Assembly: GCA_963665325.3 (NCBI GenBank) | Contig: CAXXWS020000004.1 | Location: 32,001 to 96,000, forward strand | Direction of reading: 5' to 3' | Length of the DNA stretch: 64,000 nucleotides | From: Alphaproteobacteria bacterium | Lineage (GTDB): Bacteria > Pseudomonadota > Alphaproteobacteria > Bin95 | In this document: positions 3,903 to 16,549 of the stretch, piece by piece | How the letters are laid out: every line of letters begins with the position of its first letter | How positions within the stretch are numbered: position 1 is the first letter of the stretch | Notes under the pieces: model-generated | What the model was told of the DNA's origin: nothing | The model's database searches: none | What the model saw: the letters and a program-made list of their open reading frames with translations, nothing else | Translations under genes and position numbers: made by a program

Positions 3903-6900
3903 TCACCAACGCGCGGTAATCTCGACCCCGACCGTGTGTTCCGGCGCCTGCGCGTCGCTCTCCCTGCGGGTTGCCCTGAGGCCGAAGGAGAAGTCGGGCG
4001 CGTTGGCTTCCGGCGTCAGCCGCCAGCCGACGCTGTAGTCGCGCGCGCCCGTCGCAAGCCCCAGGCCCACATGCGGGCTGCCGGTCCAGCGCCCGCCGAA
4101 GGCCGGGAAGCCGTACGCGGCTTCGGCCGCCCAGCGGCTCGCCGCCACGCCGCCCGTGCGATCCTCCAGCGTCGCCGGCTGGAACAGCGCGTCCAGCCCG
4201 CCGCTGGCCTGACCGCCGAACTCCTGGCGCAGGCTCAGCGACGGACCCCGCTGCGTCCCCGGAGCGGGATCGAAGGCGAGCGAGGCCGCATAGCCCCGGT
4301 CCTTCAGGTCGTCGTTCTCGTGCGCCAGCAGCGTGCGGCCCGAGACGTCGAGCGAGAGACCGAGCGCCGGGTCGCTCCACGCGATCCCGCCGCCGAGCTC
4401 GACCCCGAAGCCGGTCTCGGCATCGCCGCCGTCATGGCGCGCGCCGATCTCCAGCTTCGGCACCAGAGACCCGCCGCCCTCCATCGCGAACCGCCAGCTG
4501 CCCTCCAGCCCGAGCCTGAGCCGGGTCGCGTCGGAGTCCGAGGCCGCGAGGTCGCGGGTCTTCTCAGACGAGGTCCGCGTCCACAGGGCGTCCGAAGTGA
4601 GCGCCAGCGCCGGGCCGCCGCCTTCCGCGGGGGGCGCCAGCAGGTCGCCCCTGAGCCCCGCCGCCGCCATGCTCCAGGCGGTGTCGGAGCTGTAGCTGTC
4701 GCCCAGCGCGGTCTTCAGCGTCACCTCGCCCGTGCCGTAGCCCGCCGCGCCCCAGAGCTTCAGGCGCTCCGAGGCCTGCAACGCCGCATAGGGGATCGCC
4801 GCCGTCAGCGACGCCTCCACCTTGCCGTCGCCCGCGCGCACGGCGCCGCCGCACAGTTCGGCGTCCACGCCGTCGGGACAGGTCTGGCCGTCGGGACGGG
4901 GACTGACCCCGGTGTCGCGGTAGTCGCCCTCGCCCGCGCTCTGCGCGAGCGCCAGGCCGACCAGCCACTTGCCGCGCGCATAGTCCGCGCCGAGCATGCC
5001 CGTGGTGACCGTGCCGTCGAGCGAGAACGTCCCCTCGCGGCCGTCGAAGCTCCCCTGCGACGCCCGGCCCCAGAACGCCAGGCTGCCGCCCGAGCCGTCC
5101 GCCGCGCCGGTCAGCGAGAAACTCGATCCGAGCAGCGCGTCGCGCGCCGTCATCGACCGCGATTGCGCCAGGGACGCGCCGGCACGGGCGTCGCCGAACC
5201 GGTCGCCCGCGCCGCCCGGCGATACCGCGGCGGGCGCATCCGCACCGAAGCCGCGCGCGATGTCGGCCATGGCCAGCGCCGTATCGCGGTCCGCCGGCGT
5301 TGCGCCGGGCGTTGCGCCCGCTGCCGGCCGGCCGGCGGCGGGGTCGAAGTTGAGCGCCTGCCCGGCAACCGTGCCCTGCATGCCGGGCGTGCGCGGGGCC
5401 GCCATGCGCCCCGCGATGCCGTCCAGCGCCTGCTCCGCCACCGTGCGCCCGAAGCGCGCCAGGAACGCCGCCGGCAGCGGGTCGTCGTTCACGATCGTCC
5501 CCACCGCCACGCCGTCCGCGATCGGCACCACCGTCGCCTCCGTCAGCACGAACTCGAACGTCTCCGGGTCCTCGTCATGGCTGTCGTCGTAGACCCAGAC
5601 CCACACCCGCTTCTCGGTCTCGCCCGGCTGGAAGTAGAGATGCCAGCCGGCGGCAAGGTAGTCCCGGCCCTGCCGCGCCGACACCGGGCTCGACTCCCGG
5701 GTCCGGTACGACACCCGCACCGCCCGCTCCGACGGCGCGCTCAGCCGGAGCGTGAACCACATCAGCCCCGCGCCTTCCTTCACCGTCGCGTCGTCCACCG
5801 AGAGCGACGCCCCGGTGGCCGCCGCGTCGTTGTCGGCCACCGCGACCGAGGCCGTATCCCCCGGAGACGCCGCCACCGTGTAGCCCGCGCCGGCATCCAC
5901 CGCCGCGCTCACCGAGCCGTCGGGCTCGTCCGCCGCGTCGTCGTCCGTCGCCACGGTGAGCGCAACCCCGGTCGTGCCGGCCGGGATGGTCACCGTGCGA
6001 CCGCCCTCGTCGCCCGCGGCCACGAAGTCGCTGCCCGCTTCCTCCGAGACCGTGAGCCGCACCGCAAGCGCCGCATCCGGCGCCCGGTCCGCCGTCACCG
6101 TGAACACCGCGCCCGCCCCCTCGGTAATGGAGCCGGCCTTCGCCGTCACCGAGACCACCGGCGGCGGCAGGTCGTCGTCCGTCACGGCGACGGCGCCCGA
6201 TGCCGGGGAACCGACCGTGTAGCCGTCGCCGCCGTTCAGGGTCACGCTCACCGAGCCGTCCGGCTCGTCCGTACCGTCATCGACCGTCGCCAGGGTCAGC
6301 ACGAGGCTGCCGCTCGTCGGAACGGTCACCGTCCGCGCGCCGGCGGCAATGCCGAAGTCGCCCTCGGCGCCAACCGTCACCTCGACCGCCAGCGGCGATG
6401 CCGGGGCCGGCGCCGCCGTGAGCGTGAACACCGCGCCGCCGCCTTCGGAGACCGCCTCCCCGGCCGCGACGCTCACCGCCGGCGGGATTACGGGCTGCGG
6501 CTCCGGCTCGGGCGCCGCTTCCAGCGCCGCGATCGCCACGACCACCGGGTCCCAGCGTGTCCAGCCCCGGTCGGCATAGGTCCGCGCCTCCGCCGCCGTC
6601 ATCGGCGCACGGCCGTTGTCTTCGCCGAAAGCCGCGAGCACGCGCATCCAGCGTTCCACATGCGCCGCGCCGTTATGGGTCTCCGCCGCGTAGCTCCTGA
6701 CCAGCGCAACCAGCGCCGGGTCCACCGCCGGTGCGGCCTGCTGCGTCGCGGCCTGCTGCGGCGCGGGGTCGCTCCCCGCCGCCCCGATCGCCCCGATCGC
6801 CTCCGCGATCCGGGGCCAGAGCGGGCTGCTGTAGCGACGGGCATTCGCCTCGGCTTGCGCCGCCGTCATCGCCGTCACGCCCGGATACGCCTCCACCCCG

Positions 6901-9900
6901 AACGCCACCAGCACCCGCCGCCAGCGCAGGACATGCGCCGCGCCGTTATGGGTCTGCCCCGCAAGTATTCTGACCTGCGCCACCAGCGACGGGTCCAGCG
7001 CCGGCGCGTCGTCGTCGAGCAGGGCCACGGTGACCGTCGACGGCGTGCCCGCCGTGTAGCCGTCGCCCGGCTTGATCCGGGCCACCACCGTGCCGTCGGC
7101 GCGCTGCTTGTCGTCCGACCAGGTCGTGACCGTCCAGGCCGCCGAGGTCGCGCCCGCCGGGATCGTCACCGTGCGGGCCCGTTCGAGCCCGATATAGTCC
7201 AGGCCCGCGCCCATCTCCTCCGACGCGCCCAGGTGCACCGGGAGGTCGTAGCCCGGCGCCGGGGCGGCCGTGACCGTGAAGGTCACCTCGCCGCCCTCCG
7301 TCACCGAAGCCGCATCGGCGCCGAGCGTCAGCGTCGAGGGCGTGGCCAGCATCTGCGCCCGCGTGTTGTCGTCTATGTTCGTGACCGGGTCCGCGTCCTG
7401 GACCGTGAGCGTCAGCTTGCCCGTGCTGGTCGCATAGTCCCTGCCGCCCAGCAGGATGACCTCCACCTTGCTGTCGCCATCGAGGTCGGGGCTCGCCACG
7501 GTCGGTATGTGAATGACCGTAGCGGAATGCCCGGCCCCGATCTCGATGCTCCGGGGGTTGGGGTCCCGATCCCGCTTCGGATCCGTGAGGCTCGGCCCCC
7601 GGACCACACGCTCGCCGTGGTAGTCGGCGAGGTAGTAGTTCACGATGACCGGAGTGGCCAGCCTGAACCAGGGATCCATCTTCACCCGGAGGTTGAACGC
7701 ACCCCCCTCCGTGACGGTATGCGGGGTCGGGGAAACCACGTTGCCGGGATTGGTGCCGACAACCGCTTCGAGGCTGACGAACGGCAGGGGCGACCTGTCG
7801 TCGAGCGCGATGACGGCCGTCCTGGTCCTGCTGGTGTCGGTCGAATCCTCGAACGTCACCGTGAGGCTTTCGTTCTCGGCCACGCCGTCGGCCACCACGG
7901 TCAGCGTCAGCCTGTACGCGACGCCGTCCCAATGCCCCCGGGTGCGGGTGCCGTCGGCCAGGCCGACGCAGACATCGAGGTTGTTACCAGAGTTGGACAG
8001 CCCGTCAGTCACATGGTCGCACCTGAGCGACGTCGTGGCGCCGGCAAGGGACCTTATCCGGGGCGCGCCCCAGCTGGACGGAAAACCGGTGACGGTGACA
8101 AAGCTGACACCCCCCTCGCGTACCGTGGACGGCCTGGCGGCGAGCGAAGCCGCGACGCCGTCGTTCACGACCACGGTGAAAGCGTTGGCCGTGCCATGCG
8201 GGTCCGCGCCGCCGCCCACATCGGTGCCGAGCGCGGCGGCGTCGAAGGCGGTGTTCGAGCCGAGCGCGATGGTGAAGGTCTCCGCGCCCTCCGTCGTGCC
8301 TTCATTCGCCGGCGTCAGCTCCAGCGTCGCCGTCCGCGCGCCCGCACCGGAAAAGCGCACCTTCGGGGCCGCCGTGCCGACATCGCGCAGGCCGACGCCC
8401 GTGTTGGCCGCACCGGACTTCGCCGCCAGGCTCCAGTCGCCGGTGGTCACCCCTGTGCCGGAGATCGACAGCGGCACGTCGATCGTCTCGCCCACCACCA
8501 GCGCGCGGCCCAGCGTCACCGTGAACTCGACCTGGCCGCCCTCGGTCACCGCGCCGCTGCCCACGCGGGCAAGGCTTGCGACCGTCGGGTCGTCGTCGCG
8601 GATGGTGACCGTGTCGCTCACGTTGATCGGGGCGACCCCGGCAGGACGTGCAGTGTTCGGGTCGTCGGTGACAGTTATCGTCACCACTTCGTCCGGCTCG
8701 TCGGTGGAGTCGGGTGTCCCCCATACGGTGAATGAGAAGGCAGAAAAGCCACTAGATATGTCGCTGTCTAAACAGCCGTTCGTCAAAGTGATTGGGACGA
8801 CGCCGCTCCTGACGCTGAAACTCGGACTGGTGAAGGAACTGGAAAAGCAGGCCCGGAATGGAACATGGGACGTCTGAATCGCGGACAATGTCACAGCCTC
8901 TATAACAACGTTAGTGCCCTGCTCATCGGCATAGCCGCCCGGCAGCGGGCTTCCCCCGGAAACGATCGACACCGTTGCGTCCGGCGGCGCCGCCACCGTG
9001 AATACCGGGGAGAGGCCGAACAAATGTCGGGTAAAAGAGGGGGGGGTAGTGCCAGCAGATATCGGATCAGCACCACTCTGAACGACGCCATTTCTAATCG
9101 CGGCGCTGTGGCCGAAATGCGCGTTATGCTTGGTGCCGTCGGTGTTGCTGCCCGTAAACACAGAAACGTTGCCCGAAAGGCCACCTCCGCTCTCGAGCTT
9201 CACGCTGTAACTGTCCCAGGTTCCGTCGTAGAAGTCGGCGTAGTTGTCGGCGAGCTTGCTGCCGGTCAGCCAGTAGATGGGGACGCCCGTGCCGGTGGTC
9301 CCGGTGTTGTCGCGGGCATCGACGGCGGAGGTCGAGCCGACGACGGTGAAGCGGTTGCCGCAGCTGTCGGTGATCGCGCTGTGGCCGGCCTTGGCGCGGG
9401 TCTGCACGTACGTGTTGTAGGTGGCGATGTCGGTCGCCGAGCCGTCGCGTTGGGTGGAGGTCACGAACAGCAACCGGAACTGGGCCCCGGCGGCGAGCCC
9501 CGAGGGCTTCAGCGCCCAGTCGTTCGGCACCGGGTACGAGCCGTCGGTATTGGCCGTCGTGCATTCGACCGCCGTTTGCGCGGCGGCCCCGGTCGGAAGG
9601 CCCGCCAGGAGCGGCAGGGCGAGCAGAGCGGCGGCAAGGGCGGGACGCAGGCCGCGCCGCAGGCGAAGGGCCGCAGAAGATCCGAAACTACCGGAGGAAG
9701 AAGCGGGCCGGCGGGACGAACCACCCCCGCCGGCGGAACGAGAAGACTCAGGCGGGGAGGACGGACGACCCGGCCGGCGCAGCCATGCGGGCGCCTTCAT
9801 GGCCGGCATGCGGACGCAGCAAGCGCGACCCGGCGACCCGGCGACCCGGCGACCCGGCGACCCGGCGACCCGGCGACCCGGCGACCCGGCGACCCGGCGA

Positions 9901-10220
9901 CCCGGCGACCCGGCGACCCGGCGACCCGGCGACCCGGCGACCCGGCGACCCGGCGACCCGGCGACCCGGCGACCCGGCGACCCGGCGACCCGGCGACCCG
10001 GCGACCCGGCGACCCGGCGACCCGCGACCCGGCGACCCGGCGACCCGGCGACCCGGCGACCCGGCGACCCGGCGACCCGGCGACCCGGCGATCCGGCGAT
10101 TATAGCGGGAATCTCAGGGATAAGCAGGAACGGATTTGTCAACCCCGAAACGCGGATGACGCGGATGGTGTCGACGGGCGCCATCAGCGCCGCCCGGATC
10201 CTGCCCGTAAATCCCGTCAT
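3903..10220 (-). CDS. Giant autotransporter/adhesin: lectin-like N-domain, multiple Calx-beta/Ig-like repeats, C-terminal beta-barrel (start uncertain: 10220, 9809 or 9800)
   Basis: Signal-like LAAALLALPLLAGLPTGAAAQ; repeated V.EG..A.FT.T...DD..DEPDGSV; barrel region WGRASQGSFDG...LGADY...RLRLGLEGS ending in terminal Trp. Confidence 0.85.
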   Translation of the reverse strand: MTGFTGRIRAALMAPVDTIRVIRVSGLTNPFLLIPEIPAIIAGSPGRRVAGSPGRRVAGSPGRRVAGRRVAGSPGRRVAGSPGRRVAGSPGRRVAGSPGRRVAGSPGRRVAGSPGRRVAGSPGRRVAGSPGRACCVRMPAMKAPAWLRRPGRPSSPPESSRSAGGGGSSRRPASSSGSFGSSAALRLRRGLRPALAAALLALPLLAGLPTGAAAQTAVECTTANTDGSYPVPNDWALKPSGLAAGAQFRLLFVTSTQRDGSATDIATYNTYVQTRAKAGHSAITDSCGNRFTVVGSTSAVDARDNTGTTGTGVPIYWLTGSKLADNYADFYDGTWDSYSVKLESGGGLSGNVSVFTGSNTDGTKHNAHFGHSAAIRNGVVQSGADPISAGTTPPSFTRHLFGLSPVFTVAAPPDATVSIVSGGSPLPGGYADEQGTNVVIEAVTLSAIQTSHVPFRACFSSSFTSPSFSVRSGVVPITLTNGCLDSDISSGFSAFSFTVWGTPDSTDEPDEVVTITVTDDPNTARPAGVAPINVSDTVTIRDDDPTVASLARVGSGAVTEGGQVEFTVTLGRALVVGETIDVPLSISGTGVTTGDWSLAAKSGAANTGVGLRDVGTAAPKVRFSGAGARTATLELTPANEGTTEGAETFTIALGSNTAFDAAALGTDVGGGADPHGTANAFTVVVNDGVAASLAARPSTVREGGVSFVTVTGFPSSWGAPRIRSLAGATTSLRCDHVTDGLSNSGNNLDVCVGLADGTRTRGHWDGVAYRLTLTVVADGVAENESLTVTFEDSTDTSRTRTAVIALDDRSPLPFVSLEAVVGTNPGNVVSPTPHTVTEGGAFNLRVKMDPWFRLATPVIVNYYLADYHGERVVRGPSLTDPKRDRDPNPRSIEIGAGHSATVIHIPTVASPDLDGDSKVEVILLGGRDYATSTGKLTLTVQDADPVTNIDDNTRAQMLATPSTLTLGADAASVTEGGEVTFTVTAAPAPGYDLPVHLGASEEMGAGLDYIGLERARTVTIPAGATSAAWTVTTWSDDKQRADGTVVARIKPGDGYTAGTPSTVTVALLDDDAPALDPSLVAQVRILAGQTHNGAAHVLRWRRVLVAFGVEAYPGVTAMTAAQAEANARRYSSPLWPRIAEAIGAIGAAGSDPAPQQAATQQAAPAVDPALVALVRSYAAETHNGAAHVERWMRVLAAFGEDNGRAPMTAAEARTYADRGWTRWDPVVVAIAALEAAPEPEPQPVIPPAVSVAAGEAVSEGGGAVFTLTAAPAPASPLAVEVTVGAEGDFGIAAGARTVTVPTSGSLVLTLATVDDGTDEPDGSVSVTLNGGDGYTVGSPASGAVAVTDDDLPPPVVSVTAKAGSITEGAGAVFTVTADRAPDAALAVRLTVSEEAGSDFVAAGDEGGRTVTIPAGTTGVALTVATDDDAADEPDGSVSAAVDAGAGYTVAASPGDTASVAVADNDAAATGASLSVDDATVKEGAGLMWFTLRLSAPSERAVRVSYRTRESSPVSARQGRDYLAAGWHLYFQPGETEKRVWVWVYDDSHDEDPETFEFVLTEATVVPIADGVAVGTIVNDDPLPAAFLARFGRTVAEQALDGIAGRMAAPRTPGMQGTVAGQALNFDPAAGRPAAGATPGATPADRDTALAMADIARGFGADAPAAVSPGGAGDRFGDARAGASLAQSRSMTARDALLGSSFSLTGAADGSGGSLAFWGRASQGSFDGREGTFSLDGTVTTGMLGADYARGKWLVGLALAQSAGEGDYRDTGVSPRPDGQTCPDGVDAELCGGAVRAGDGKVEASLTAAIPYAALQASERLKLWGAAGYGTGEVTLKTALGDSYSSDTAWSMAAAGLRGDLLAPPAEGGGPALALTSDALWTRTSSEKTRDLAASDSDATRLRLGLEGSWRFAMEGGGSLVPKLEIGARHDGGDAETGFGVELGGGIAWSDPALGLSLDVSGRTLLAHENDDLKDRGYAASLAFDPAPGTQRGPSLSLRQEFGGQASGGLDALFQPATLEDRTGGVAASRWAAEAAYGFPAFGGRWTGSPHVGLGLATGARDYSVGWRLTPEANAPDFSFGLRATRRESDAQAPEHTVGVEITARW
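9824..10101 (+). repeat. 8-bp tandem repeat (CGGCGACC)n
   Basis: 24 perfect units 9831-10022, a 7-bp variant 10023-10029, 7 perfect units 10030-10085, 2 degenerate units, plus a 7-bp variant at 9824-9830. Confidence 0.97.
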
Positions 10221-10530
10221 GACCTGCTCCAATCCCTTGACCGCGATGCACACGCCGCCGAAGCGTAAAGCCCTCCGGGAAGTGTGCCCGATAACCTCCC
10301 GTGACCCATAACAAAATTACCGCCGCAGGGAAAGGGCGATTCGATTCGGCCGCCACGCAGTACTTCGCCGGCGGATCCGCGGAACCGATGCGGCGGGGCA
10401 TGGGGTATGGGCCGCCGCATCTTGCATGAGGAGACGCGGCGATGGCGGTTTCGATCCGAACCGTGGTGGAGCGGCATGCAACCCGGCGCGTGGCGTCGTC
10501 GCCTGCGTGGCGAGCGCGCACACGCTCAAC

Positions 10531-12419: not shown

Positions 12420-12592
12420 CCGGCCGGGGCGGGCCCTCTGGCGGGAACGCAGCCGGACGCGCGGGGAGACCGGCACGGACGGCGATCCGGCAAACGACGG
12501 CCCGGGGCGGCACGACAGTCTGCAACCGCCGCCGGCAACACAGCTGCGGACCGTTCCATGGCCGGATGCCGCCAGGAGCCGCCCGGAACTGA

Positions 12593-13362
<770 letters not shown>

Positions 13363-13549
13363 CATCCCCCGGGACCCGAACGGTTACCCTCGGAATCGGT
13401 AATCCAGCGTCAAGGCCCGCCGCCGCCCGACCCCGTTTTGAAAAAAACTGCATTCGATTTGATGACTGATCCCGCAACTCGACCCCCAAGACTTCGACTC
13501 AAGATTTTTTCTTCCATGATTACTGTTAGTTATGAGATTCGAGCATAAA

Positions 13550-13632
13550 ATGCTCCGACCTTGATCCGGGCATCCGTTTCCGCCGCCGCGACGACCCCGA
13601 GGGAGATGGCCGGAACGAGTCCGGCCATGACG
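13550..13632. repeat. CGTC-type REP-like dimer, degenerate copy
   Basis: ...GATGGCCGGAACGAGTCCGGCCATGACG matches the copies at 14610 and 23965. Confidence 0.7.
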
Positions 13633-13638
13633 GGAAGT

Positions 13639-13746
13639 GTCATGAAACGTCATGCTCTGTCATGAGGGGGCCGGGCGATGTCATGAAACGTCATGTTTTG
13701 TCATGCGGGGGCCGCGCGATGTCATGATGTGTCAAGTTTCGTCATG
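13639..13746 (+). repeat. Hierarchical array: 3 x 41-bp units, each with 3 GTCATG boxes at 10-bp spacing
   Basis: GTCATG at 13639, 13649, 13659 / 13680, 13690, 13700 / 13721, 13731 (GTCAAG), 13741. Confidence 0.92.
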
Positions 13747-13804
13747 GTCCGGCGGCTGGCGGCCGGCGCTCCGGGTCTTCCGTCCGGTTTCCTGTTTTCG
13801 CCAT
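13742..13804 (-). CDS. Putative 20-aa peptide MAKTGNRTEDPERRPPAAGP
   Basis: Strong RBS AAAGGAGAG upstream of the ATG; stop lies inside the first box of the array. Confidence 0.35.
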   Translation of the reverse strand: MAKTGNRTEDPERRPPAAGP

Positions 13805-14108
13805 GGTCTCTCCTTTCCGTCCGTCTTCGCTCCGTCCTCCCCTCCGCCGCGCTGAACGCGGCGGACATTGCAGATGGCGGCGTTTGCGCCGCCGCCCGGC
13901 CCTGCGCGGCGGGACCCTGTTTCGCGCGTATTACGCGCCTGCCCGCGCGCCCGTCAGCGCGCGTTACGCGCCGGCGCGGTTCGCGCGCCTGATTGCGCGC
14001 GCGGGCCGGACGCAGGGCGCACTTCGCCCGTCGGCTGAATCGGGGCTTTGTTTCCGCGCCGGCGCCGGCGCGGGCGGAAGCGGCCTCCGGATGCCTCTTC
14101 CTATATTT

Positions 14109-14147
14109 GTTCCCTTTTTATTCTAGTGATGCCACGCCGAAATGCAA
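14109..14147 (-). promoter_or_regulatory. sigma70-like promoter overlapped by an alphaproteobacterial LexA-like box
   Basis: Minus strand TTGCAT-N16-TAGAAT; GAAT-N7-GAAC (14109-14123) versus consensus GAAC-N7-GAAC. Confidence 0.55.
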
Positions 14148-14254
14148 GTCTTTCCAGCGGAATTTTTCGCAATTTCCTGCCAGAAGGTTGATTTTCAAGG
14201 AAACATTACCTCGATACATGGCCGCCGTTCGCCTGCTTTTCGGGGGCCGGCGAA

Positions 14255-14497
14255 GTGCTGCCGCCCTTCGGCTGGGACGAGGACCGGCGGCTGCGGCTGC
14301 GCGCGAAGCTGGATGCGCTCTATTTCCACCTCTACGGCGTCACCGACCGCGACGACATCCGCTACATCTACTCCACCTTCCCCATCGTCGAGCGCGAGGA
14401 GATGAAGGTGTGGGGCCGCTATCGCTCGCGCGACCTCTGCCTCGCCTGGACGAGCGCGCTCGCCGCCGGCGATCCCGATGCGGAGATCGACCTGTAG
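14255..14497 (+). pseudogene. C-terminal fragment of a type IIG (Eco57I-like) restriction-modification enzyme
   Basis: PPF.WDEDRR..LRAKLDALYFHLYG..RDDIRYIYSTFPIV is typical of such C-termini; the rest of the gene is missing. Confidence 0.65.
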
Positions 14498-14609
14498 GGA
14501 GGCTCCGCCGGAAAGGCCGCGCCCCCGGAAACTGCCGGGTTCACACATCTGTATCGGGCCGCTCCCGTTCTGTGCCCTCATCCGCCACTCCGGCCTCCGA
14601 GCCTCTTCC

Positions 14610-14695
14610 CGTCATGGCCGGACTTGTTCCGGGCATCTTTCTCGGGGCAGTCGCGATGGCGGAAATGGATGGCCGGAACAAGTCCGGCCATGACG
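14610..14695. repeat. CGTC-type REP-like inverted dimer
   Basis: CGTCATGGCCGGACTTGTTCCGGGCATC...GATGGCCGGAACAAGTCCGGCCATGACG. Confidence 0.85.
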
Positions 14696-14902
14696 ACATG
14701 GGGGCCGGACAGGAGGCGGACAGGAGATGCCGCGCGCTGGACAAGCCGGTCCGCATTCCCCAGAGTGGGGCGGCTACTACGCGGTGGACGCAGGGAAAAT
14801 GCCTGCAACGGCAGTCTGGCGGCGCTTGGGAGCGCGCTGGCGGATTGAGGCGTTCATTGCGTTGCGGCGACGTTGTTTCGCCTCAACAGAGGGAGGATAC
14901 TC

Positions 14903-16549
14903 ATGAGGTCGAGAAGACAATTTTCACTTCGTAACCTAGCGATCGGAGCGGCGGCGGCCATCTTGCTCGCCGGCACCGTCTCGGCTCCGGCGCGGGCCGG
15001 CGGCACGCTCAGGGTCGGCATGACCGCCGCGGACATTCCGCTTTCCTGGGGCCAGCCCGACCAAGGCTTCGAGGGTTTCCGCTTCATGGGGCTGATGCTC
15101 TATGACGGGCTCATCAACTGGGACATGAGCTCCGCCGACAAGGCGTCCGGCCTCATTCCCGGGCTCGCCGAAAGCTGGTCGGTGGACGAGGGCGACAAGA
15201 CCAAGTGGACCTTCAAGCTGCGCAAGGGCGTGAAGTTCCATGACGGCTCGGACTTCGACGCCGATGCGGTGCTCTGGAATTTCGACCGGCTGTTCGACAA
15301 GGACTCGCCGCAATACAGCGCGCGCATGGCCTCGCTGGTGAACTTCCGCATTCCCTCGCTCGTCTACGATCCGGACACCAACACGAAGGGATGGAAGAAG
15401 ATCGACTCGCACACGGTCGAGTTCACCACCAAGTCTCCGGACAGCTTCTTCCCCTACCAGATCTGCTACATCCTGCTGTCGAGCCCGGCGCAATTCGAGG
15501 CGACCGGCAGCGACTGGAACAAGTTCGCCCAGAACCCCTCCGGCACGGGGCCGTGGAAGCTGACCCAGATCGTGCCGCGCGAGCGCGCCGAGTTCGTGCC
15601 GTTCAAGGAGCACTGGGACGAGACGCGCCAGCCGAAGCTCGACAAGGTCGTCACGATTCCGATCCCGGACCCGAACGCGCGCACCGCAGCCCTGCTCTCG
15701 GGCCAGGTGGACTGGATCGAGGCGCCGGCGCCGGATGCGATCCCCAGGCTGAAAGAGCGCGACATGGTGATCTCGTCCAACCTCTACCCGCATGTCTGGT
15801 CGTGGCATCTCAGCCGCGTCGAGGGCTCGCCCTGGAACGACATCCGGGTGCGCAAGGCGGCCAACCTCGCCATCGACCGCGACGGCATCCTCTCGCTGCT
15901 CGGCGGCTACGCCGTCAAGGCGAGCGGGCATGTGTCGCCGGCCGACCCGTGGTACGGCTCGCCCAGCTTCGAGCTCCGCTACGATCCCGACGCGGCGAAG
16001 GCGCTGCTGGCGGAAGCCGGCTTCGGGCCCGACAACCCGGTCCAGGTGAAGATGATGATTTCGGCCAGCGGCTCCGGGCAGATGCTGCCCCTGCCGATGA
16101 ACGAATACATGCAGCAGAACCTGAAGGAAGTCGGCATCGAGGTCGAGTTCGAGGTCATGGAGTGGCAGAGCCTGCTGGACCGCTGGCGCGCCGGCGCCAA
16201 GGCCGAACAGGCACAGGGCGCCAATGGCATCAATGTCAGCTACACGACGCAGGATCCCTATAGCAGCTTCACCCGCTTCCTGCGGTGCGACCTGCACGCG
16301 CCGTCCGGCGTGAACTGGGGCTACCACTGCGACGAGGAGATGGACGCCCTGCTCGCCAAGGCGTCGCTCGCCTTCGACGCGAAAGAGCGCGATGAGTGGC
16401 TGGCGAAGGTCCACGCGCGCGAGGTGGACAACGCCCTCTTCCTCTGGGTGGTCCACGATGTGGCGCCGCGGGCGATGACGAAGCAGGTCAAGGGCTTTAT
16501 CCAGGCCCGGAACTGGTTCCAGTCGCTCACCCCGGTCACCATGGACTAG
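14903..16549 (+). CDS. Peptide/nickel ABC transporter substrate-binding protein
   Basis: PGLAESW, FKLRKGVKFHDG, PSGTGPW; GGAGG RBS. Confidence 0.93.
   Translation: MRSRRQFSLRNLAIGAAAAILLAGTVSAPARAGGTLRVGMTAADIPLSWGQPDQGFEGFRFMGLMLYDGLINWDMSSADKASGLIPGLAESWSVDEGDKTKWTFKLRKGVKFHDGSDFDADAVLWNFDRLFDKDSPQYSARMASLVNFRIPSLVYDPDTNTKGWKKIDSHTVEFTTKSPDSFFPYQICYILLSSPAQFEATGSDWNKFAQNPSGTGPWKLTQIVPRERAEFVPFKEHWDETRQPKLDKVVTIPIPDPNARTAALLSGQVDWIEAPAPDAIPRLKERDMVISSNLYPHVWSWHLSRVEGSPWNDIRVRKAANLAIDRDGILSLLGGYAVKASGHVSPADPWYGSPSFELRYDPDAAKALLAEAGFGPDNPVQVKMMISASGSGQMLPLPMNEYMQQNLKEVGIEVEFEVMEWQSLLDRWRAGAKAEQAQGANGINVSYTTQDPYSSFTRFLRCDLHAPSGVNWGYHCDEEMDALLAKASLAFDAKERDEWLAKVHAREVDNALFLWVVHDVAPRAMTKQVKGFIQARNWFQSLTPVTMD

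Follow-up and report, generated by a model that had tools for sequence, protein, structure and literature searches.

A gene-deleted copy of a genus-restricted cassette with a terminase-like gene and phased CATGAC boxes in an alphaproteobacterial genome

A stretch of 64,000 nucleotides from an alphaproteobacterial genome (the window) carries on its minus strand a promoter, a hairpin-rich leader, a strong ribosome-binding site (RBS), a tiny open reading frame and a repeat array, with no conventional gene to serve. Our comparisons show that this arrangement is a gene-less, internally deleted derivative of a longer cassette, in which the RBS, the ATG and the end of the lost gene have been fused into a meaningless ORF. 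Intact copies encode a small-terminase-like protein and finish in phased CATGAC boxes, and the cassette family, on the genome sequences compared, is restricted to this genus.

Results

Cassette copy in the window

The sequence features listed by the initial annotation are all present on the minus strand, including the RBS (AAAGGAGAG, 13816-13808), the 20-codon ORF (13804-13742) and eight exact GTCATG boxes. The description of the cassette as an orphan was wrong, because there are 64 full-length copies in the genome. The parts of the window copy are as follows.

13631..14202, minus strand: whole gene-less cassette copy; ends good to about 20 bp
14142..14147, minus strand: -35 hexamer TTGCAT; 3/6 matches to consensus, aligned with family TTGAC
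14120..14125, minus strand: -10 hexamer TAGAAT; read from the sequence and the family alignment
14109..14123, minus strand: LexA-type direct repeat GAAT-N7-GAAC; overlaps the -10 and the likely start site
13841..14102, minus strand: conserved GC-rich leader core; in intact copies it forms the terminase-like gene's 5' UTR
14076..14101, minus strand: 5'-terminal hairpin P1 (GGAAGAGGC / GCCGCUUCC); MFE and centroid folds
14054..14073, minus strand: hairpin P2 (CCGCGCCG-GCGC-CGGCGCGG); MFE and centroid folds
13968..13998, minus strand: the family's most conserved 31-mer, GCGCAATCAGGCGCGCGAACCGCGCCGGCGC; from exact-match counts
13844..13895, minus strand: family unit of 45-52 nt, single here, 1-4 tandem repeats in other copies
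13808..13816, minus strand: Shine-Dalgarno sequence; homologous to the intact gene's RBS, GGAACGAAGGAG
13742..13804, minus strand: vestigial 20-codon ORF; translation MAKTGNRTEDPERRPPAAGP and stop, the ORF ending ...GGACCATGA
13639..13746, minus strand: array of eight CATGAC boxes and one variant; spacing 10/10/21 bp in 41-bp units
13606..13628: REP-like hairpin adjoining the 3' end, outside the cassette

The 5' end is placed at 14202, where homology with the closest copy (C4:243009-243358) begins; the family profile match covers 14180-13902. At the other end the array stops at 13639; in the family, a further 20-25 nt or so separate the last box from the 3' end. What follows downstream is the REP-like hairpin, AT-rich sequence and a fragment of an IS110-family transposase in convergent orientation, and the earlier statement that no conventional gene is served holds true for this copy. 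An IS110 bridge-RNA-like guide was considered and rejected, given that the cassette protein is not an IS110 recombinase, that the insertion sites have no common target and that the IS110-family fragment is convergent and separate. Further copies of the REP-like hairpin occur at 14614-14636 and 14669-14691, and a truncated restriction-modification-like ORF also lies near the window copy. A GGA-rich stretch separates leader from array, which prompted the idea of a CsrA sponge, since dropped.

Intact copies and the terminase-like protein

The genome contains five intact copies of 1.35 kb each (one has its gene at C1:2133191-2134171), which share 1.0-1.36 kb at 92-94% identity and consist, in order, of a sigma-70-type promoter, a GC-rich leader of about 300 nt, an RBS, the gene for a 326-aa protein and CATGAC boxes. 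Through its N-terminal helix-turn-helix (HTH) domain, which is SF6 G1P-like, the protein matches Pfam Terminase_2 (E = 2.2e-12), and phmmer finds SF6 small terminase entries among PDB sequences (4zc3, 2cmp and 3zqp; E = 0.002-0.007). Foldseek ranks 3zqq and 4zc3 highest, with a target-normalised TM of 0.85 and 41% identity (rmsd 1.5 for 4zc3); an alignment with full-length 3zqq spans 126 columns (E = 3e-3), and no Foldseek match reaches E <=0.001. Helices 69-90 and 93-106, the oligomerisation region, are modelled at pLDDT 65-75 only. Known small terminases are half the size of this protein, which has an extra conserved region of about 180 aa and an acidic or Lys-rich tail; a protein database search with residues 125-295 gave no usable match. 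At least 120 full-length homologues exist at 64-93% identity, while a pattern-seeded search of IMG/VR contigs returned no close relative, only four loci at 31-32% identity confined to the HTH.

All five Terminase_2 matches of the genome fall within cassettes, and all five genes are solitary, with no large terminase or portal gene beside them. The genome's only large terminase, its sole Terminase_6N match, is located in a Mu-like prophage elsewhere, and TerL_ATPase has no match in the genome.

Gene loss can be followed as a deletion series, from the 326-aa gene through an in-frame form of 125 aa (residues 1-39 and 239-326; C3:1324791-1325168) to copies without coding remnant. The window copy belongs to the last kind: tblastn with the intact protein detected no coding remnant in it, and its 20-codon ORF, which aligns with the 3' end of the 326-codon gene, joins a start codon to sequence similar to the final 40 nt or so of that gene. 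The small-peptide module envisaged by the initial annotation is accordingly ruled out, the ORF being a fusion vestige of the deleted gene that is not conserved among copies.

Distribution and mobility of the family

Searching with nhmmer produced 72 matches in the genome, of which 64 are full length and include the promoter. The family also occurs in 13 of the 16 other genomes of the genus, at 2-114 copies each, and has no copy in 20 genomes of two sister genera; copy number among species thus ranges from 0 to 114. The homologue search advocated in the initial annotation recovered promoter, leader and arrays in multiple copies, both here and in related genomes.

At one orthologous site, upstream of lepA, six species carry the unit (G000, G004, G007, G008, G009, G011) and two lack it (G013 and G015, with 40 bp between the flanks), so it was gained by insertion, or lost, as one block. 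Copies at this site keep the promoter, the 31-mer and the boxes, their middle part varying with indels, and the flanks are 76-93% identical between species, allowing at most a 4-5-bp TCCG(G) duplication. The 5' end of the unit (TTTGTTC...GAAATAATTCC) is unrelated to its 3' end (CATGACAcTTC..), so terminal inverted repeats are absent, and no inverted repeat within 12500-15200 joins the two ends. No recombinase or transposase was recognised in the long copy, its only ORF being the Terminase_2 protein, and the 1.35-kb unit, having that single ORF, lacks any integrase, replication or regulatory module. An informal look at the match list revealed no obvious link between copy orientation and position along the contigs. 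The suggestion of a non-autonomous mobile unit outside any named family is borne out by these observations: the unit has many copies, it arose from longer copies that carry the gene, and one orthologous site has it in some species and not in others. The family core has high summed depth in contigs of four sequencing runs, one of them labelled a viral metagenome, contigs being of a kind that cannot show enrichment or packaging starts.

The CATGAC array

Exact GTCATG boxes start on the plus strand at 13639, 13649, 13659, 13680, 13690, 13700, 13721 and 13741, and a GTCAAG variant at 13731. These make up 2.7 copies of a 41-bp unit, through the repetition of which the window array was enlarged to nine boxes. 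Across the genome, box pairs at 10-bp spacing form 84 clusters where about 1.7 would be expected by chance, and 66 of the 84 lie within 1.5 kb downstream of a family core. A phased CATGAC array follows on the same strand within 700 nt in 53/64 copies, and in the five long copies it sits after the gene. There, three boxes in 10-bp phase overlap the last codons (..PDHD..) and the stop codon; the first box encodes H323 and D324, two residues that do not vary among 30 homologues, whereas the tail that precedes them is hypervariable. PhoB-type boxes are direct repeats of TGTCAT with a period of 11. That identity was dropped for the present array, where the period is 10 and no -10 element lies downstream.

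The arrays might instead be operators within a portable unit of promoter, leader and operator that drives the downstream gene; bound to the boxes, the HTH protein would then serve as a roadblock or transcription factor, and unrelated genes would be wired together. By crude ORF calls, the downstream gene is co-oriented in 44/64 copies and the upstream gene in 47/64; many start codons lie approximately -14 to 170 nt past the end of an array, the genes downstream have varied functions, and no terminator-like site follows the window array. Any transcribed insert, however, would also be expected to be co-oriented, a convergent gene faces 20/64 copies, the window copy serves none, and the gene calls span no more than 60-77% of each contig. 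In sequence as well as in structure, the protein matches small terminases best, not regulators. We consider a regulon of this kind unlikely.

Leader conservation and RNA structure

The leader core is 70-83% identical across the 64 full-length copies (blastn and nhmmer), and the strongest conservation of the family resides in its 31-mer rather than in the array: among the 64 matches, 38 are exact, 24 have one mismatch and two have two, compared with no match for the reversed 31-mer. The hairpins reported by the initial annotation at 14054-14073, as GGCGGCG-TTTG-CGCCGCC and as CCGCCGCG-CTGAA-CGCGGCGG are present in the window leader, the first also in both MFE and centroid folds, but the long-range pairing of CCCTGCG with CGCAGGG is not conserved in other copies, as judged by eye and without a count. 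Overall, folding is near the expectation from composition, the 309-nt leader giving z = -1.92 in the sense direction (5/100 shuffles as good) and z = -2.87 in the antisense direction.

These data bear on a different view of the family, in which its members are paralogous RNAs, small or leader, each with a promoter of its own; the window copy would then be an SOS-inducible ncRNA and the terminase gene a passenger in a few copies. Promoters are indeed kept in all 64 copies and in the orthologous copies of six species, and no intrinsic terminator-like site was found on the minus strand inside the unit. Among 92 leaders, seven of the ten P1 pairs have changed on both sides, with 85.8% of cells paired; for P2 the figures are two of four pairs and only 72% of cells (MAFFT alignment). 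Across the whole proposed structure double-sided changes affect 89 cells, where shuffles give 42.7 and none of 500 is as high, yet a control slid by -2 gives 14 double-changed pairs against 13 for the structure itself. G-U exceeds A-C in P1 (77 vs 39), P2 (50 vs 14) and the closing helix (47 vs 4), in keeping with a paired sense strand, while in three other proposed helices the excess is of A-C over G-U. Clear covariation in the leader is limited to P1. From the MAFFT alignment of the 92 leaders, RNAalifold predicted 21 pairs with no compensatory change, a poor consensus, the variable GC-rich parts being misaligned, and mutual information with APC on a 152-row HMM alignment placed non-Watson-Crick pairs at the top that reflect subfamily haplotypes; both alignments are sequence-based. 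The Rfam comparison called for at the outset came back empty, with no match to Rfam 15 at gathering score in the whole window and, with the limit set at E of 10, chance-level rows only (E 2.3-5.9) in 13500-14300. In intact copies, moreover, the leader is nothing other than a 5' UTR that precedes a conserved protein gene, and z is lower in the antisense direction than in the sense. An RNA family with a passenger gene appears to us distinctly improbable.

Promoter and LexA-type box

On the minus strand TTGCAT (14147-14142) and TAGAAT (14125-14120) are separated by a 16-nt spacer, and the -10 element is overlapped by GAAT-AAAAAGG-GAAC (14123-14109), a direct repeat with one mismatch to GAAC-N7-GAAC; this is the arrangement first described. 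A simple promoter scan listed no promoter in 13300-14400, because the -35 hexamer matches TTGACA at only 3/6 positions, but the window hexamers align with a TTGAC / TGnTAnnAT promoter conserved across 64 homologous copies.

The alphaproteobacterial LexA consensus is GTTCN7GTTC / GAACN7GAAC (PMC3091678). In this genome, lexA has GAAC-TAATGTA-GAAC over its -10, recA has GAAT-ATTTCAA-GAAC and uvrA has GAAT-TGCGGCG-GAAC, so that the window box resembles those of recA and uvrA in form and that of lexA in position; it differs from such promoters in that no SOS gene is served and the box is limited to a small subfamily. A LexA-type box at this promoter position occurs in only 3/64 copies of the genome, and boxes with an identical offset are seen at C4:243030, C3:762211 and L048 of another genome. 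Other subfamilies bear LexA-like words at different positions. Over the family as a whole, about 9 kb of promoter regions contain 14 words with at most one mismatch, where the genome-wide rate predicts about 5.6, and these words reduce to roughly three independent origins. It is reasonable, from the motif comparison, to read the box of the window copy as a putative LexA operator. SOS control as a family-wide property is not supported, because the box stands at this position in 3/64 copies and the excess of LexA-like words is modest.

The same promoter evidence could be turned towards decay, the window copy being the inert leftover of a selfish element now extinct or nearly so, its promoter, LexA-like word and hairpins functionless. 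The gene has been lost, the -35 hexamer is degenerate, the excess of LexA-like words is slight, and the copy lies amid debris (IS110-family fragment, truncated restriction-modification-like ORF, REP-like hairpins); in addition, copy number among species varies as selfish repeats do. Against this, copies only 70-83% identical retain the 31-mer exactly in 38/64 cases together with the promoter hexamers, six species retain orthologous copies with the same conserved blocks, the window array is enlarged and not eroded, and five intact genes with at least 120 full-length homologues constitute a living family. Inert decay is, to our mind, an improbable description of the window copy.

Discussion

We favour a reading in which the window holds a gene-less copy of a genus-restricted cassette whose arrays dock the terminase-like protein in trans, and whose subfamily is under SOS control; taken as a whole, we regard it as probable, if only just. 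At 10.25 bp per turn, the CATGAC boxes would all point to the same side of the helix and may serve as pac-like docking sites for protein supplied by intact copies, and promoter, leader and array would have been kept because they act in cis. In the window subfamily LexA would shut the promoter and DNA damage would open it, at the time when a prophage terminase would be available, the large terminase being that of the Mu-like prophage. The predicted outcome is packaging or transduction starting at the arrays, or else the diversion of phage packaging.

A bolder extension, which is possible though somewhat doubtful, holds that replicons throughout the genus are seeded with dozens of pac-like CATGAC landing pads for a free-standing chromosomal small terminase, and that helper-driven headful packaging leads to transduction or to decoy defence. 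The helper could be an SOS-induced Mu-like prophage or an infecting phage, the former fitting the LexA boxes seen in several subfamilies. Packaging from the pads could move any part of the chromosome between cells, or could starve the phage, and the conserved leader may represent a second cis site, for cleavage or assembly for example. In such an element class a terminase subunit would take the place of a transposase or integrase. The pac-site idea leaves the top conservation of the leader 31-mer unexplained.

The SPP1 pac site lies around the start of terS and comprises direct-repeat boxes A, B and C (PMC4737164). The cassette resembles SPP1/SF6 G1P and its pac site in the N-terminal HTH, which is of the same family (Terminase_2), and in the physical coupling of direct repeats to a terS-like gene. 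It differs in its 326-aa protein with the extra region of about 180 aa and tail, in having its repeats at the 3' end of the gene, in the absence of an adjacent large terminase, portal or other phage gene, and in being dispersed as about 64 mostly gene-less copies.

Phage satellites of the PICI/SaPI type, and the small marine PICMIs, bring their own small terminase and pac site. Like them, the cassette has a chromosomal TerS homologue and would need the large terminase and capsids of a helper; unlike them, it is only 1.35 kb when intact, has a single ORF without integrase, replication or regulatory module, and is multi-copy with gene-less derivatives. It recalls MITEs in that short copies keep both ends of a few long gene-bearing copies, an intermediate form exists, and copies are present or absent at an orthologous site and number 0 to 114 among species, but its ends are unlike each other, terminal inverted repeats are lacking, no clear target-site duplication was seen, and the long copy has no recognisable transposase. 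Correia/NEMIS elements of Neisseria and 'mobile promoters' are dispersed intergenic repeats that carry promoters. The cassette similarly brings a promoter next to unrelated genes, mostly co-oriented, although it is much longer and has asymmetric ends, a protein-coding origin and a phased box array. No description of such cassettes was found among the titles and abstract openings of the literature searched.

Should the arrays dock a free-standing small terminase, this sponge-associated alphaproteobacterial genus would have a genome-wide, possibly damage-triggered packaging handle. For uncultured symbionts this would amount to a new route by which genes are transferred or phages are disturbed, and also to a mobile-element design that lacks any known recombinase. 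For genome scans, the combination of promoter, hairpins, strong RBS, tiny ORF and array without a gene can be the two ends of a gene-deleted cassette, and longer paralogues should be looked for before such finds are called sRNA or micropeptide genes.

A dispersed cassette family

The minus-strand promoter with GAAT-N7-GAAC over its -10 hexamer, the ribosome-binding site (RBS), the 20-codon ORF and the GTCATG array described in the initial annotation are all present in the 14147–13639 region, as are the GC-rich hairpins that it listed.

14147–14142, minus strand: -35 hexamer TTGCAT, 16 nt before the -10 hexamer
14125–14120, minus strand: -10 hexamer TAGAAT
14123–14109, minus strand: LexA-type word GAAT-AAAAAGG-GAAC, overlapping the -10 hexamer
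13816–13808, minus strand: RBS AAAGGAGAG, upstream of the 20-codon ORF
13804–13742, minus strand: 20-codon ORF, product MAKTGNRTEDPERRPPAAGP-stop, continuing into the box array

The array holds eight exact GTCATG boxes (CATGAC on the cassette strand) and one variant; a 41-bp unit occurs 2.7 times in it, and the boxes are spaced 10/10/21 bp apart. The -35 hexamer matches the consensus at only three of six positions, and a simple promoter scan listed no promoter at this copy.

This cassette is not the orphan it had been thought to be, having 64 full-length copies in the same genome. BLASTN and profile searches of that 5.58-Mb, five-contig genome (contigs C1–C5) revealed the leader core (14102–13841) as a dispersed repeat, a profile of promoter plus core giving 72 matches, of which 64 are full length. 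All 64 begin approximately 40 bp 5' of the -35 hexamer (TTTGTTC...GAAATAATTCC) and keep a TTGAC-N17-TGnTAnnAT promoter, while 53 are followed within 700 nt, on the same strand, by two or more CATGAC boxes spaced 10 bp apart. Box clusters with this spacing number 84 genome-wide, where chance would give about 1.7; for 66 of them a family core stands at most 1.5 kb upstream, and the other 18 include 10 that are members of an unrelated repeat. Flanking genes are diverse. By crude ORF calls, which cover 60–77% of the contigs, 44 of the 64 copies share the orientation of the gene downstream and 47 that of the gene upstream. That the cassette is a portable promoter-operator unit we regard as unlikely.

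Individual copies display further features. The stretch at C5:203133–203251 is 97.5% identical to window 13715–13833 (RBS, micro-ORF and first boxes), although the copy concerned has a promoter and leader of another subfamily, and the match suggests recombination or gene conversion among copies. One copy (C1:684541–685028) lies directly upstream of ssb, some 1.6 kb from uvrA with its GAAT-N7-GAAC box (C1:686601). Another contains, between leader and array, a 475-aa ORF (C1:1919235–1920662) that by eye resembles an IS110-family transposase.

Gene-bearing copies and the origin of the micro-ORF

Five copies without a nearby array carry a 326-aa ORF; these intact copies have 1.0–1.36 kb in common at 92–94% identity and run from promoter through leader, RBS (GGAACGAAGGAG) and ORF to CATGAC boxes over the last codons, ...PDHD(R/K)(S/T)-stop. 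Residues 11–80 match Pfam Terminase_2 (E = 2.2e-12), all five such matches in the genome being genes of intact copies, and the best PDB matches by sequence are to SF6 small terminase (4zc3, 2cmp, 3zqp). An AlphaFold model has a mean pLDDT of 60.5, rising above 90 in the HTH; a structure search with it returned no match at E ≤ 0.001, the nearest structures being 3zqq and 4zc3 (the latter with a target-normalised TM of 0.85 and 41% identity). At least 120 full-length homologues (64–93% identity) occur in public assemblies, this figure being the best 120 of 356 proteins at E ≤ 1e-3, and in a 30-homologue alignment H323 and D324, whose codons lie within the first box, show no variation, in contrast to the hypervariable tail that precedes them.

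A sixth copy has suffered an in-frame deletion that leaves residues 1–39 and 239–326 as a 125-aa product, and tblastn found no coding remnant in any copy beyond these six. The window ORF aligns to the RBS and ATG of the gene followed by sequence resembling its last 40 nt or so (...GCGCCGG...GCCGGACCATGAC), and hence we read it as a vestige of the deleted gene and not as the peptide module proposed initially; a small-peptide product is rejected, since micro-ORFs differ in sequence and length between short copies. On this alignment the 'RBS and micro-ORF' is a deletion scar, and the copy in the window belongs, without its gene, to a family of cassettes organised around a small-terminase-like gene. 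It is improbable, in our estimation, that the window copy is inert and decaying.

Mobility and distribution

The suggestion of a non-autonomous mobile unit holds: besides being multi-copy, the unit is present between an upstream gene and lepA in six genomes of the genus (G000, the window's own, with G004, G007, G008, G009 and G011) and absent from that site in G013 and G015, where 40 bp separate the flanks. Comparison of these sites shows gain or loss of the unit in one block. Orthologous copies here keep the promoter, the 5' leader hairpin (P1, window 14076–14101), the 31-mer (window 13968–13998) and the boxes, and differ by indels in the middle. No terminal inverted repeats of the unit were found, and any target duplication is 4–5 bp at most.

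The 31-mer occurs 64 times in the window's genome at up to two mismatches. Of 16 further genomes from the genus, 13 have it 2–114 times and three lack it; it is also absent from 20 genomes belonging to two sister genera, and the reversed 31-mer has no occurrences. In a scan of genome contigs, all exact matches came from MAGs whose label is Alphaproteobacteria or Rhodospirillales bacterium.

LexA-type words

The same genome has GAAC-TAATGTA-GAAC across the -10 of lexA, GAAT-ATTTCAA-GAAC at recA and GAAT-TGCGGCG-GAAC at uvrA, in agreement with the alphaproteobacterial LexA consensus given in PMC3091678. The window promoter carries a word of the same form (GAAT-N7-GAACA), found also at the same offset at C4:243030, C3:762211 and a copy in another genome. 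The proposed SOS-type box is a reasonable reading for the window copy but is not supported as a family-wide trait, only 11 of 64 copies having any LexA-like word at up to one mismatch: at the -10 in three, and 5' of the -35 in eight copies of another subfamily. Such words number 14 in about 9 kb of the family's promoter regions; at the 0.63 per kb seen across the genome, some 5.6 would be expected. An exact GAAC-N7-GAAC stands approximately 31 nt 5' of the start codon in three of the five intact copies; the 125-aa copy has a GAAT-N7-GAAC at about 34 nt. Perhaps three independent origins are represented, a pattern that is suggestive, not significant.

Leader structure and the conserved 31-mer

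In folding, the 309-nt leader of the window copy has only a small advantage over shuffled sequences (z = -1.92; 5 of 100 did equally well). We aligned 92 leaders, of which 11 come from the same genome; the 81 taken from other MAGs were chosen by exact 31-mer, so that this block is invariant among them by selection. A hand-drawn structure was paired in 85.7% of cells (83.9% in shuffles), with two-sided changes in 89 cells against 42.7, a value reached in none of 500 shuffles. P1 contributes the main share, with two-sided changes in 7 of 10 pairs (for example GC 52, AU 18); the signal is weaker in the next hairpin (P2, 14054–14073), and the remaining helices either do not vary or are frequently unpaired. 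G-U exceeds A-C in P1, P2 and the closing helix, and A-C exceeds G-U in three others. RNAalifold and mutual information added no support, and a -2 slide control had 14 pairs with two-sided changes against 13 for the structure itself. An RNA as the functional product is quite unlikely despite the P1 signal, given that control, the better folding of the opposite strand (z = -2.87) and the Rfam scan, which matched no family.

Copies overall are 70–83% identical. Their best-conserved piece is the 31-mer: of the 64 copies, 38 have it without a mismatch, 24 differ from it at one position and 2 at two. Because pairing fails to account for this conservation, the 31-mer may be a protein site.

Possible function

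In SPP1 and SF6 the pac site is made up of direct repeats lying around the start of terS (PMC4737164), and by this analogy the helically phased boxes would be pac-like sites at which the terminase-like protein, provided in trans, docks. The window copy's subfamily would be under SOS control; packaging, transduction or phage interference as the end point is speculation. Among known systems the cassette comes nearest to the TerS/pac modules of pac phages, TerS-bearing satellites, MITE-like derivatives and promoter-bearing dispersed repeats, having some features in common with each and differing in others. A literature search, covering abstract openings at most, found nothing resembling the family.

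The only large terminase (Terminase_6N/6C) of the genome belongs to a Mu-like prophage (C1:474–494 kb) that also has portal_Mu, gpT, GemA and MuB-like genes; TerL_ATPase had no match in the genome. CATGAC is not enriched across C1:455–505 kb, which spans the prophage (18 on one strand and 22 on the other, with about 20 expected for each), and a pattern-seeded search of IMG/VR gave only distant relatives of the small-terminase-like protein (31–32% identity over the HTH). The prophage (C1:474000–494000) also encodes a 717-aa Mu F-like head protein whose C-terminal domain is an ADP-ribosyltransferase (Pfam matches to ART and to ADPrib_exo_Tox).

Neighbourhood of the window copy

REP-like hairpins (ATGGCCGGAACnAGTCCGGCCAT) lie at 13606–13628, 14614–14636 and 14669–14691, preceded by GTCATG, the reverse of the cassette's box word. 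Two 83-nt arms (13555–13637 and 14605–14687), 84% complementary, flank the cassette and an adjoining truncated ORF. The latter, a 91-codon C-terminal fragment (14222–14497, plus strand) at the cassette's 5' end, has no Pfam match; we take it to resemble the tail of a restriction-modification methylase, and an 82%-identical copy lies at C1:1212648–1212887. Convergent with the cassette is the C-terminal fragment of an IS110-family transposase (12869–13345, plus strand; Pfam Transposase_20, E = 2.5e-19), its N-terminal DEDD domain missing. In a 2116-aa ORF (3903–10253, minus strand), PGRRVAGS repeats follow one another at the N-terminus and the C-terminus looks autotransporter-like, both by eye. 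Elsewhere in the genome, a repeat end of about 396 bp is found at least 11 times, 100% identical (C1:1400504–1400900 and 10 other places); it is probably where an active IS or transposon ends.
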